Virus record (IMG/VR): IMGVR_UViG_2703719367_000020
Length of the DNA stretch: 4,387 nucleotides
Origin: a virus
Taxonomy: Duplodnaviria > Heunggongvirae > Uroviricota > Caudoviricetes
Reading direction: 5' to 3' (one strand)
In this document: in pieces, positions 630 through 4,001 of the stretch
Layout: every line of letters begins with the position of its first letter
Numbering within the stretch: position 1 is the first letter of the stretch
The notes under the pieces: model-generated
Database searches by the model: none
What the model was told of the DNA's origin: nothing
The model's input: the letters and a program-made list of their open reading frames with translations, nothing else
Program-made: the position numbers and the translations under genes

Positions 630-1087
630 ATGAAACTGTTAAACATTCTTTTAGCTGTTGTTTTAACTGTAAGTACAACCGTAGCACAAGCAGAATCGGC
701 ATTGTAGAAGCGTAACAGTGTTGCTGGCACCGATATGTTCAGTATCGGTAGTGTTTCTATTAACTGCACGATTAATCCAGAAGACAACAATTTGCTACCA
801 CATATGAGTGGATTTACGGTCATACCCCCACCCCGCTAAATCAGTACGATTCTGATATTATTTTTATCATCAACGGTAAAAAGTATTCGGCCCCACCTGT
901 CGACGGAACACGAATGAATAAGAATGCGTGGGTATACTTTATCGATGCTATCGGTGAAGCCACGAAGCTCGACGTTTTAGTAAACGGTAAGAAAGTCGAC
1001 AGCTATACCGCAAATATCAAAAATGAGAAAAAGACTTTGGGTAACAAATTCTACGGTAGCTGCTGGAACACCTGGTTCCAGGAATAA
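630..1087 (+). pseudogene. Disrupted gene for a small secreted protein: signal-peptide ORF ends at a premature TAG, and the C-terminal body is in a different frame
   Basis: GGGGAG (617-622) sits 7 nt before ATG 630. Translation 630-704 gives MKLLNILLAVVLTVSTTVAQAESAL, a Sec-type signal peptide with an AQA-E cleavage motif, then TAG 705-707. The same frame continues to TAA 837-839. A second frame is open from 776 to TAA 1085-1087 (…YDSDIIFIINGKKYSAPPVDGTRMNKNAWVYFIDAIGEATKLDVLVNGKKVDSYTANIKNEKKTLGNKFYGSCWNTWFQE) and has no ATG/GTG/TTG start before codon 914. Confidence 0.5.
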
Positions 1088-2020: not shown

Positions 2021-2434
2021 ATGAAAAATATCATCACTATTTTAATGATTGCAGTTATCAGTTTCTTTACTGCTAATGTATCAGCAAACAATGCCGTTCC
2101 TTTACCGACCAACCTGACTGACGTTACTGACGGTACAGAATTCTGGTGTCAGGGTACTGATACTATCGACGGAGGTTGTGAATACCTGGGCACATCCAAA
2201 GACATGCAATACGGTCTGGTACACGCCATGGGGGGTACAGCGTGCTGGGATGGTTTATACGGCGTAATTAATTTCTATACCGGTAAAGCCCAGACCATCA
2301 AATACAACAACAATCAAAGTTGTGAAGGCAACATCACCGCCGGTTTCGTTACCCTAAAAAACGGTAAACCGGGCGTTAAACTTTACGACAATACGATTCA
2401 TAAGATTGTCGGGCTTGACGAAATCAAAATTTAA
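2021..2434 (+). CDS. Small exported protein with signal peptide and four cysteines; function unknown
   Basis: GGAG (2009-2012) sits 8 nt before ATG 2021; 137 codons to TAA 2432-2434. The N-terminus MKNIITILMIAVISFFTANVSA is a typical Sec signal peptide (cleavage likely after VSA). The mature part has Cys in WCQG, GGCEY, TACWD and QSCEG. AT-rich codon usage; followed by a terminator. Confidence 0.8.
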   Translation: MKNIITILMIAVISFFTANVSANNAVPLPTNLTDVTDGTEFWCQGTDTIDGGCEYLGTSKDMQYGLVHAMGGTACWDGLYGVINFYTGKAQTIKYNNNQSCEGNITAGFVTLKNGKPGVKLYDNTIHKIVGLDEIKI

Positions 2435-2488: not shown

Positions 2489-2519
2489 CCTCTGCCATAA
2501 TGGCAGGGGCTTTATTTTT
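2489..2519 (+). terminator. Rho-independent terminator of the exported-protein gene
   Basis: CCUCUGCCA (2489-2497) pairs with UGGCAGGGG (2501-2509), 9 bp with one G.U, loop UAA, then cTTTATTTTT (2510-2519). Confidence 0.65.
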
Positions 2520-2779
2520 ACCTGAAAATACATGACGGGCTGTACATTACTTTTATTTTCCGAAGATCCTTTCTCACGCAAACAGACAGTTGCTGTCATA
2601 ACAGCTTACCGCAATGTGTTTATCCAGGAATGCATTTCCGGCGGATTATCCGCAACGCGGAAGGTCAGCGACGCTGGCGCTGCCGGAATTCTGAACCCTA
2701 TGCAGGCAAACAACTTAATGCGTGGCTCACCAGTGAAGGGCTTCCCGGACAATAAACCTCATTCATTTCACCCATCAGG

Positions 2780-2809
2780 CCGCGTCTTCTCCGGGAGACG
2801 CGGTTTTTT
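2780..2809 (+). terminator. Strong intrinsic terminator or attenuator hairpin 35 nt upstream of the DUF932 start codon
   Basis: CCGCGUCUUC (2780-2789) pairs with GGGAGACGCGG (2794-2803), about 10 bp with one G.U and loop UCCG, followed by TTTTTT (2804-2809). Confidence 0.7.
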
Positions 2810-2844
2810 CATTTATACCGCTTAATCATTCATAAGGAGCAATT

Positions 2845-3663
2845 ATGCGATTAGCCAGTCGTTTTGGTTATACAAACCAGATACGCCGTGAACGTCCACT
2901 GACACATGAAGAGCTGATGCACTATGTTCCCAGTATTTTTGGAGAAGACCGGCATACCTCCCGCAGTGAACGCTATGCGTACATTCCCACCATCACCGTA
3001 CTGGAAAGTCTGCAGCGGGAAGGCTTTCAGCCATTCTTCGCCTGCCAGACACGTGTGCGTGACCCGGGTCGCCGGGAATACACAAAACACATGCTGCGTC
3101 TGCGCCGTGACGGGGAGATAACCGGACAACATGTCCCTGAAATTATTCTGCTCAACTCCCATGACGGTTCATCCAGCTACCAGATGCTGCCGGGTTACTT
3201 CAGATTCGTCTGCCAGAACGGCTGCGTCTGTGGTCAGTCTCTGGGAGAAGTGCGTGTTCCGCACCGGGGAAATGTGGTGGACAGAGTCATTGAAGGGGCT
3301 TACGAGGTGGTGGGCGTGTTTGACCGGATAGAGGAGAAGCGTGATGCCATGCAGTCGCTGGTCCTGCCGCCACCGGCACGCCAGGCACTGGCGCAGGCGG
3401 CACTGACTTACCGTTATGGTGACGAACATCAGCCCGTCACCACCGCCGACATTCTGACACCACGACGCAGGGAGGATTACGGTAAGGACCTGTGGAGTAC
3501 TTATCAGACCATCCAGGAGAATATGCTGAAAGGCGGGGTTTCCGGGCGCAGTGCAAAAGGAAAACGTATCCACACCCGTGCCATTCACAACATCGACACC
3601 GATATTAAGCTCAACCGCGCATTGTGGGTAATGGCAGAAACGCTGCTGGAGAGTATGCGCTGA
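2845..3663 (+). CDS. DUF932 family protein (YfjQ/YafZ-like, typical of CP4-type prophage-like islands)
   Basis: AAGGAG (2834-2839) sits 5 nt before ATG 2845; 272 codons to TGA 3661-3663. MRLASRFG…YIPTI…GFQPFFACQTRVRDP…HMLRLRR…PEIILLNSHDGSSSYQMLPG…RFVCQNG…EVRVPH…NRALWVMAETLL matches recalled E. coli DUF932 proteins. Family assignment is from memory, not a search. Confidence 0.88.
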   Translation: MRLASRFGYTNQIRRERPLTHEELMHYVPSIFGEDRHTSRSERYAYIPTITVLESLQREGFQPFFACQTRVRDPGRREYTKHMLRLRRDGEITGQHVPEIILLNSHDGSSSYQMLPGYFRFVCQNGCVCGQSLGEVRVPHRGNVVDRVIEGAYEVVGVFDRIEEKRDAMQSLVLPPPARQALAQAALTYRYGDEHQPVTTADILTPRRREDYGKDLWSTYQTIQENMLKGGVSGRSAKGKRIHTRAIHNIDTDIKLNRALWVMAETLLESMR

Positions 3664-3836
3664 TGAAACATATCCCTGAAGGCGTGATTCAGGTACCAGA
3701 ATCACCCGACGCCCCGGAGGCGCTGCCGGGGTGTCGTTCCATTTCTGATGATGACCTGTGCGCCTGGTGTACCCGTCTGCTTTACCGTCCCGGAGAACTC
3801 AGTCTGTGCAGACTGAGTACAGGCAATGGCATCTGA
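3663..3836 (+). CDS. Small hypothetical protein (57 aa), probably translationally coupled to the DUF932 gene
   Basis: ATG 3663-3665 overlaps the DUF932 TGA stop (ATGA at 3661-3665); GGAGAG (3648-3653) sits 9 nt upstream. Product MKHIPEGVIQVPESPDAPEALPGCRSISDDDLCAWCTRLLYRPGELSLCRLSTGNGI, stop TGA 3834-3836. The track's ATG 3624 start lies inside the DUF932 gene and is less likely. No family recognised. Confidence 0.45.
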   Translation: MKHIPEGVIQVPESPDAPEALPGCRSISDDDLCAWCTRLLYRPGELSLCRLSTGNGI

Positions 3837-4001
3837 CCATCCGTCTGTGACCGGAACGGTTACGCGTACGGCTGTCCGGAATTTCAGCCGAATATCATTC
3901 ATCCCTGATATTACCGGGGCTCACGGTCAGTGATGAACGTGATGTTGTCAGCCCCCGGCCTTTACTTCCTCGCATTTATTCACACTACAAGGATTTCACT
4001 C

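Follow-up and report, generated by a model that had tools for sequence, protein, structure and literature searches.

A predicted intrinsic terminator conserved ahead of DUF932 genes in a CP4-type island of Escherichia coli and across Enterobacterales

How is a gene expressed when what appears to be a strong transcription terminator ends only 35 nt before its start codon? This question is raised by a 4,387-nt stretch of DNA (the window) filed as a virus of the Caudoviricetes under the IMG/VR record IMGVR_UViG_2703719367_000020, in which a G+C-rich hairpin followed by six T precedes a gene of the DUF932 family. A first-pass annotation, made from the letters alone, had proposed that DUF932 would need either terminator read-through, by attenuation or antitermination, or an unusually placed promoter, and, alternatively, that the about 280 nt upstream form a terminated small RNA. 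The comparisons reported here indicate, as far as sequence can tell, that the element is a true intrinsic terminator, conserved in related loci, which in a CP4-type E. coli island separates the DUF932 gene from the remains of a DUF905 gene. It probably works as an intercistronic terminator or attenuator that lets only read-through transcripts reach DUF932.

Anatomy and conservation of the hairpin

The hairpin and its U6 tail have exactly the letters and the coordinates (2780-2809) first ascribed to them. The 5' arm, from C2780 to C2789, reads CCGCGTCTTC and the 3' arm, from G2794 to G2803, reads GGAGACGCGG; together they form a core stem of 10 pairs, one U.G among them, closed by the loop UCCG (TCCG in DNA, 2790-2793), a tetraloop of the cUCCGg type. 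According to a consensus terminator scan, the stem can be extended to A2777-T2806, thereby reaching 13 pairs of which 7 are G-C. The T6 run (2804-2809) and the ATG of DUF932 at 2845 are separated by the 35 nt of 2810-2844, and the position of the hairpin just before the DUF932 ribosome-binding site can be read directly from the sequence. Folded as RNA, positions 2770-2815 reach -22 kcal/mol, compared to -9.1 ± 2.4 kcal/mol in 200 shuffled versions, none of which folds equally well (z = -5.3). In the consensus scan, the 2777-2806 hairpin is among the strongest of the terminator-like sites of the window, which number 10 against 3.7 ± 2.1 in shuffled sequence. A G+C-rich stem, a short loop, a 3' U run, a co-directional gene upstream and, as described below, a structure conserved at the RNA level are all found, and the designation of the element as a strong terminator was borne out in every sequence feature.

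Conservation was assessed over 80 DUF932 loci of Enterobacterales, one per contig, from Escherichia, Salmonella, Klebsiella, Enterobacter, Citrobacter, Yersinia, Serratia, Photorhabdus, Xenorhabdus, Morganella and other genera, to which the window was added to give 81 sequences, a hairpin being counted when it reached -10 kcal/mol or better within the last 100 nt before the start codon. A single hairpin of this strength is present in 75 of the 81 sequences, with 63-68 distinct hairpin sequences among the 75; a T tail, defined as at least five T in the 8 nt after the stem, follows 66 of them, and an A run precedes four. The stem ends at a nearly fixed distance from the ATG (median 31 nt, interquartile range 29-35 nt, standard deviation 6.8 nt), whereas the spacing from the upstream stop codon is far looser (standard deviation 42.6 nt), and the genes found upstream of the hairpin belong to at least eight unrelated families, including DUF905 and the YfjP-type GTPase. 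Loci of Cedecea, Scandinavium and Serratia (L034, L066 and L073) have a GTPase gene upstream and a 49-nt spacer devoid of hairpin, and thereby represent natural terminator-less variants.

Since a MAFFT alignment shifted hairpins onto their T runs and was unusable for pair counting, covariation was scored with a custom script on 48 distinct tetraloop hairpins anchored on their loops. At stem positions 2-10, 77-98% of these hairpins are paired, with 4-7 standard pair types at each position, as opposed to 42-78% when the 3' arms are permuted between loci. The mean observed pairing of 0.93 was reached in none of 2000 arm permutations, whose maximum is 0.68, so that the covariation check suggested at first pass comes out in favor of a conserved structure, maintained with compensatory changes. 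Internal G.U pairs outnumber internal A.C mismatches on the + strand by 44 to 9 (binomial p ~1e-6), which shows that selection acts on the RNA of this strand; the hairpin is thus under RNA-level structural selection. The loops c(UUCG)g and c(UCCG)g are stable tetraloops specific to RNA, and one or the other closes 19 of the 48 hairpins.

In the close family of the window, scored on eight distinct relatives, 88 of 88 cells are paired, and the changes consist of one compensatory replacement of G-C by A-U, in E. albertii, and three changes to G.U. On its own this compensatory change is not significant, being reached in 124 of 500 shuffles, as the variation is too small. More telling is the fate of the gene upstream. 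Over 11 close-family loci, DUF905 is intact in two and clearly broken or deleted in eight, with an internal gap of about 16 residues in a ninth, that of E. albertii: it is frameshifted in the window, carries a nonsense codon in E. ruysiae, in one S. flexneri locus and in the genomic island GEI-I of E. coli Nissle, is fragmented in O157, and is reduced to its last 12-16 codons in SEV1, FDA1268 and a second S. flexneri locus. The hairpin and its leader are intact in all 11. In addition, the approximately 55-80 nt before the hairpin, made up of the 3' end of DUF905 and the spacer, are nearly invariant even where the other DUF905 sequence has been deleted. The hairpin is therefore kept for its own sake, travelling with DUF932 and not with the gene that it nominally terminates, and its maintenance across Enterobacterales despite upstream decay suggests that transcription into the module behind it is deliberately limited.

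Routes of transcription into DUF932

The proposal that DUF932 needs read-through or an unusual promoter was a reasonable one, since no sigma-70-like site was found on the + strand of 2440-2844 at a threshold of at least 9 of 12 hexamer matches, a threshold that weaker promoters would escape. If the hairpin acts as an intercistronic attenuator, most transcripts arriving from upstream would end at about 2809-2812. These transcripts would come from the promoter of the gene for a 137-aa secreted protein or, further up, from the Ag43 promoter, and only the fraction that reads through would get as far as the strong AAGGAG site of DUF932 and, beyond this gene, the genes for antirestriction, RadC and toxin-antitoxin proteins. 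The hairpin would then be both attenuator and insulator, thereby keeping the module low or silent; it would not be a riboswitch, nor would it mark where a free-standing small RNA ends. Read-through might be simple leakage or might be helped by a factor.

Partial terminators are known within E. coli operons, namely T1 between rpsU and dnaG and the attenuator between rplL and rpoB, where the downstream gene receives read-through transcripts only and is expressed at a lower level. The island hairpin resembles them in being an intrinsic terminator between co-directional genes, with too little room for a promoter. It differs from them in that the layout is repeated before many genes of mobile islands, in that the hairpin outlasts the decay of the upstream gene, and in that co-transcription of DUF932 with the genes upstream is only putative. 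As to the recurrence of this layout, scanning the 80 loci gave 297 terminator-like sites on the + strand and 114 on the - strand; 138 of the 297 (46%) lie at most 45 nt before a start codon with a Shine-Dalgarno sequence, as do 61 of 220 once the DUF932 sites are left aside, compared to 9 of 104 (9%) in 113 kb of the E. coli Nissle core genome scanned in the same way. The genes so preceded are RadC/JAB (23 loci), the GTPase (13), a secreted 144-aa protein (8), antirestriction (6), DUF905 (5) and others. Over the whole island, the start codons of cah/Ag43, DUF905, DUF932 and DUF4942 are each preceded, at a distance of 20-40 nt, by the end of a strong terminator on the + strand, and in K-12 the same layout is found before yafZ and yfjQ, after GTPase genes, and before yafX and lfgA, after ykfF and ypjI. 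The layout is not universal in the island, as no significant hairpin precedes the antirestriction gene of the window (3895-4001, z = 0.28).

The DUF932 hairpin is a further case of a layout described before for the neighboring Ag43 gene in islands of this type. A Rho-independent terminator reportedly lies 28 bp before the agn43 start codon; two in-frame start codons are said to flank it, and its antitermination to proceed by a mechanism not known. In the same island (locus L001), Rfam recognizes IS102/IsrC (RF00124) at 2487-2723 with 75.4 bits (E = 3e-11), outside the window and about 9.7 kb upstream of the DUF932 hairpin, directly before the cah/Ag43 start; its terminal hairpin and T run end about 20 nt before the ATG at 2742. 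The same interval contains the GATC cluster of the Dam/OxyR switch. Antitermination is reported at the agn43 leader terminator, with a mechanism given as not known (PMC5389530, citing Wallecha 2014). Besides, according to Moriel et al., agn43, yeeR and irmA are carried on a single transcript whose start maps 228 nt upstream of the agn43 ATG (PMC4807369), from which it follows that the leader terminator is bypassed in vivo, and they found agn43 up 121-fold and irmA up 13-fold in an oxyR mutant (PMC4807369).

The two hairpins have in common the island family, a strong stem with a U run some 20-30 nt before the start of the next gene, and the need for terminator bypass if the downstream gene is to be expressed, as documented for agn43 (PMC4807369; PMC5389530, citing Wallecha 2014). 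They differ in sequence, the IS102/IsrC covariance model having no match in the window, where an Rfam scan over the whole length at E up to 1 remained empty. Moreover, IsrC is a true untranslated leader transcribed from the phase-variable agn43 promoter, whereas the sequence upstream of DUF932 is a decayed protein gene in which no promoter is seen, and the two in-frame starts reported for agn43 have no counterpart at DUF932. The locus also bears on a problem not yet solved, namely by what means transcription gets past the equivalent agn43/IsrC leader terminator; should that bypass be regulated, hairpins of the DUF932 type would offer many natural test cases.

A hint from living cells comes from E. 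coli Nissle, in which only four genes were expressed more strongly once the plasmids had been cured, fluC (Ag43c) and a DUF932 gene named yfjQ being two of them, as confirmed by qPCR (PMC11056357). The fluC primers match the Ag43 type of the island of the window and of SEV1, and Ag43 is directly followed by DUF932 in at least 2473 E. coli genomes. The joint rise of yfjQ and Ag43c is suggestive in that it fits read-through from the Ag43 promoter.

Several points weigh against a hairpin crossed only by read-through from upstream. According to Moriel et al., irmA is not co-transcribed with the genes further down (PMC4807369), and read-through may therefore be very low in culture. In Nissle, it could not be confirmed that fluC adjoins the measured copy of yfjQ: the serW site is empty, the two islands found to carry DUF932, GEI-I at serX and one at aspV, each fail to give an exact match to both qPCR primers, and a search of the genome did not reveal where the third Ag43 copy lies. 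Furthermore, the supplements of the K-12 Term-seq and SMRT-Cappable-seq studies (Adams 2021 eLife; Yan 2018 Nat Commun) list nothing for yafZ, yfjQ, yafX, ykfF, yfjP or ykfA. DUF932 may also have a promoter of its own that has escaped recognition, and the conserved 55-80 nt before the hairpin could hide a weak one. Finally, a further function of the hairpin, in translation or in the stability of the mRNA, would also agree with its tight spacing to the ATG.

Beyond simple leakage, the terminators before DUF932, Ag43, the GTPase, RadC and other genes might be relieved together by conditional or factor-dependent antitermination, the module being switched on as a whole; an island-encoded factor, a modified RNA polymerase or the bypass mechanism of agn43/IsrC would be candidates. 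This stronger proposition is regarded as possible, though well short of probable. The excess of terminators close to start codons in islands over the core genome, and their presence before several conserved genes, speak for it, as does the antitermination reported at the equivalent agn43 terminator by a mechanism not known (PMC5389530, citing Wallecha 2014). In the same line, little leakage is to be expected from strong stems that carry UNCG loops and U6 tails, and the DUF932 gene rose together with Ag43c in Nissle (PMC11056357). Nevertheless, a leakage of 1-10% combined with a strong Shine-Dalgarno sequence would suffice for low expression, neither a candidate factor nor a loading site was found, and the upstream sequences of the different hairpin families are unrelated and share no motif. 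The agn43 pair of start codons also lacks an equivalent: the DUF932 frame has no conserved upstream start that crosses the hairpin, in the window a stop stands at position -12, and an in-frame start of any kind occurs in only about 11 of the 75 loci, whereby translation through the hairpin from an in-frame upstream start was rejected. With regard to attenuation in the regulated sense, the minimum-energy fold of 2510-2812 contains the terminator alone, with no competing helix, no explicit search for alternative pairings having been made; together with the empty Rfam scan and the missing crossing start, this leaves the attenuation part of the first-pass proposal without evidence for a regulated attenuator at DUF932.

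Taken to the scale of the island, the same idea would make the terminators 15-45 nt before the starts of a leading-region-like module (GTPase, Ag43, DUF905, DUF932, antirestriction, RadC and others) a common design, in which expression occurs only under dedicated antitermination or read-through, possibly by the means used at agn43/IsrC. This extension is speculative. If true, the module would be a conditionally unlocked cassette for establishment or anti-defence, and the chromosomal-island counterpart of the control of the homologous plasmid gene yubP by a promoter in single-stranded DNA (Frpo).

About as tentative is a promoter belonging to DUF932 itself, which would either overlap the hairpin and its T tract or be situated further up, in the 55-80 conserved nt that precede the stem; in the latter case, the hairpin would end a leader RNA of about 50-100 nt, in the manner of a miniature IsrC/agn43. 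The retention of a nearly invariant DUF905 3' end and spacer where the rest of the gene has gone would be accounted for in this way, as would a hairpin that tracks DUF932 and not the upstream gene, and a separate internal promoter has been mapped upstream of irmA in a related island (PMC9431211). However, only 35 nt are available from the T run to the ATG, and a -35 box would fall inside stems that differ in sequence between families. Next to the failure of the + strand search of 2440-2844 at 9 of 12 matches, inspection by eye of the conserved block before the hairpin yielded at best TCACCA and GACAAT spaced by 15 nt (7 of 12 matches), a candidate that was rejected as unconvincing. The best promoter-like matches of the window are located at 2442-2476 on the - strand, with TTAATA-17-TATAAT (10 of 12) and an overlapping match of 9 of 12; they point leftward, antisense to the 137-aa gene, and lie in the spacer between this gene and its terminator.

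A mainly post-transcriptional hairpin, stabilizing a processed DUF932 mRNA or shielding its ribosome-binding site, with the U-rich tract as a translation enhancer, is less likely again. The fixed distance to the ATG set against the loose distance to the upstream stop would suit such a role, and so would the long U-rich stretch that runs up to the Shine-Dalgarno sequence. A contiguous U run right after a G+C-rich stem is nevertheless the signature of termination, for which a stabilizer has no need, and the same signature ends the IsrC RNA before Ag43. A post-transcriptional role and termination do not exclude each other.

The upstream segment and the comparison with the F plasmid

The first-pass annotation had noted that an open reading frame (ORF) for 97 aa runs straight through the hairpin and lacks a ribosome-binding site, both of which are confirmed in the sequence, and had taken this in favor of a non-coding role for the about 280 nt upstream. 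The first conclusion, that the ORF is not a real gene, holds: the whole 97-aa product has no Pfam match, it is on record for 2 contigs, one of them that of strain STEC S1191, and RefSeq annotates nothing but pseudogene fragments over the region. The second does not, because the segment turns out to be a DUF905 gene disrupted by the loss of 10 bp. A protein of the DUF905 family is the usual annotation for the sequence preceding DUF932 in homologous loci of E. coli, where it is found in most cases. In strain A8 (L002 4093-4326), the product is 77 aa long and scores 62.2 bits on Pfam DUF905 (PF06006), and alignment with this gene reveals that the window is missing 10 bp, GGATGACCCG, after position 2626. 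Consistently, tblastn of the intact A8 protein recovers two segments of the window in different frames, with 82% identity over residues 1-33 and 79% over residues 35-73, and the translation of 2630..2755 covers positions 31-68 of the 70 of PF06006 with 31.2 bits, above the cut-off of 22.3. The intact 77-aa protein is found on at least 1000 contigs.

The absence of a ribosome-binding site at the 97-aa ORF is explained by the loss, in the window copy, of the Shine-Dalgarno sequence kept by intact relatives, where AGGTG, AGGAG or GGGAG stands in place of ACCTGAAAATACATG. Neither an uninterrupted DUF905 frame nor its ribosome-binding site is thus left, and on account of the frameshifting deletion and the lost Shine-Dalgarno sequence the locus qualifies as a pseudogene. 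The interval 2532-2755 is accordingly a decayed gene of the DUF905 (YkfF/UPF0401) family, and the 97-aa ORF is a fusion made by the deletion. Since the true DUF905 stop, TAA at 2753-2755, precedes the beginning of the hairpin by 25 nt, the latter occupies the ordinary place of a gene terminator. In terms of annotation, 2532-2825 is better described as a DUF905 pseudogene followed by a terminator than as a 97-aa protein or a small RNA.

The window copy can be aligned codon for codon with the family that includes YkfF of K-12 and c0279 of CFT073, its C-terminal fragment passing the Pfam threshold. A comparable hairpin with a T run comes after ykfF and after the pseudogene ypjI in K-12, ending about 25 nt before the ATG of the next gene, yafX or lfgA, and about 14 nt before the ribosome-binding site of that gene. 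What sets the window copy apart is the 10-bp deletion and the missing Shine-Dalgarno sequence, and its hairpin differs in sequence from the one after ykfF.

A free-standing small RNA or riboswitch-like leader spanning 2520-2809 is therefore given very little chance. It is true that a terminator bounds the segment on either side (2489-2509 and 2780-2809), that no real gene corresponds to the 97-aa ORF, and that the segment folds somewhat better than shuffled sequence (z = -2.9), the terminator hairpin being included in this fold. On the other hand, its homology to DUF905 is codon for codon, the + strand search of 2440-2844 gave no promoter-like site, no fold competes with the terminator in the predicted structure, and in the relatives the segment decays by nonsense and deletion with its last part alone kept. 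The Rfam scan, which had been named at first pass as a way to check the proposal, brought no support, and the small-RNA gene is considered largely refuted.

The remaining comparison concerns conjugative plasmids. F-like plasmids encode a homologue of the DUF932 protein, YubP (L092 6001-6822), with which it shares 64% identity; at least 5000 plasmids carry it, and 4407 of these are conjugative. In an F-like plasmid, yubP belongs to the leading region and neighbors oriT, being preceded by ygeA and by an extended inverted repeat of about 250 nt that fits the description of Frpo1; yubP is taken here to be ygeB, from gene order only. The two settings share the homologous gene, a similar stretch in the last approximately 35 nt before the ATG (TTTTATGCCTTCATAAAGGAG...ATGCGATTAG), and the position of the gene at the head of an anti-restriction and establishment-type set. 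They differ in that the plasmid has ygeA and the Frpo1-type repeat upstream and no canonical terminator, whereas the island has an RNA terminator and no Frpo homologue. In F, the leading-region operon is driven by the single-stranded DNA (ssDNA) promoter Frpo1, which was reported to be important for conjugation (PMC9849209).

The homology to yubP, presumably Frpo1-expressed in F if the gene-order equation with ygeB is right, and the likeness of the island module to a leading region would speak for an element acting as DNA, be it an ssDNA transfer hairpin (Frpo-type promoter or priming site), a palindromic operator or a recombination site, but this is the least credible of the alternatives: blastn of the Frpo1-like repeat of L092 gave no match in the window or in any island locus, the - strand DNA fold of the segment has no dominant long hairpin, the G.U pairs, which exceed A.C mismatches by 44 to 9 on the + strand, would turn into mismatches on the strand of the transferred type (the template), UNCG loops and a T tail on one side only are features of RNA, a stem of 10-13 bp is too short for -35 and -10 boxes, and the stems are too dissimilar in sequence from locus to locus to act as a common operator. 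On the first three of these points, a role of the hairpin in ssDNA was rejected.

Features of the window and of its island

The features around the hairpin are collected in the table below.

Table. Features between the 137-aa secreted-protein gene and the end of DUF932, in coordinates of the window
Feature	Position	Strand	Basis and remarks
Terminator-like hairpin with T-rich tail, CCTCTGCCA-TAA-TGGCAGGGG	2489..2519	+	9 pairs, 6 G-C (scan)
DUF905 pseudogene, N-terminal part, family codons 1-32	2532..2626	+	tblastn, alignments; Shine-Dalgarno lost
97-aa ORF, out-of-frame fusion created by the deletion	2532..2825	+	no Pfam match; 2 contigs
Site of the frame-shifting 10-bp deletion (GGATGACCCG in intact relatives)	2626..2627	+	A8 alignment; two tblastn segments
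DUF905 pseudogene, C-terminal part, original frame	2630..2755	+	PF06006, 31.2 bits; stop 2753-2755
Spacer from DUF905 stop to hairpin, ACCTCATTCATTTCACCCATCAGG	2756..2779	+	nearly invariant across the close family
Predicted terminator hairpin	2777..2806	+	core 2780-2789 / 2794-2803, UCCG loop, fold energy, covariation
U tract, T6 (2804-2809) then more T-rich sequence, CATTTATACC	2804..2819	+	
DUF932 Shine-Dalgarno, AAGGAG	2834..2839	+	5 nt before ATG; AAGGA(G/A) in nearly all homologous loci
DUF932 gene, 272 aa, YfjQ/YafZ family	2845..3663	+	Pfam PF06067, 175.5 bits

The terminator-like element that opens the table comes after the gene of the 137-aa secreted protein (2021..2434). Only 22 nt separate its end from the DUF905 ATG, a layout like that of the DUF932 hairpin; it also aligns in strain A8 and in E. 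albertii. The 137-aa gene occupies the position of irmA and is unrelated to it, its product not being IrmA by sequence and having no match in the PDB.

Positions 2440-2900 of the window are 100% identical to the chromosome of E. coli strain 319, in a genomic island by tRNA-Ser and infA. The order of genes in this island is GTPase, cah/Ag43, dynamin, RdcB, patatin, several small genes, DUF932, antirestriction and RadC/JAB, followed by DUF987, YeeU-CbtA, DUF5983, DUF957 and DUF4942, which corresponds to the CP4-type module of yfjP-yfjQ and ykfA-yafZ in K-12. The query region has matches in 4081 of 5426 complete E. coli genomes, at a median of two places per genome, DUF932 thereby heading a very widespread module that is often present in several copies.

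Some further observations concern the neighboring sequence. At 3707-3736 on the + strand, 44 nt after the DUF932 stop, an 11-pair hairpin with 9 G-C pairs, an 8-nt loop and a weak T-rich tail lies inside a 57-aa ORF (3663..3836) that has no Pfam match and may not be a gene; in other strains, only about 90 nt separate DUF932 from the antirestriction gene. The interval 630-1087 apparently holds the remains of a secreted-protein gene, where an ORF with a signal peptide starting at 630 is stopped at about 706, and where the ORF 914..1087 resembles the C-terminus NAW..FIDA.G....DV.VN.KKV of proteins encoded upstream of DUF932 in Hafnia, Salmonella, Klebsiella and other genera. The GYF_2/DUF4339 ORF at 1212-1751 is intact in the window (179 aa), and its counterpart in strain 319 is annotated as frameshifted, from which it follows that the window derives from a close relative and not from the strain 319 record itself. 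Finally, in a Nissle 1917 assembly of 2014 (NZ_CP007799.1; L091 17800-34825 and L093 10995-45397), irmA-DUF905-DUF932 and patatin...DUF932 blocks occur at the island ends as several nearly identical tandem copies, together with a duplicated ghrA/tRNA-Ser; these look like either real amplifications or assembly artefacts.

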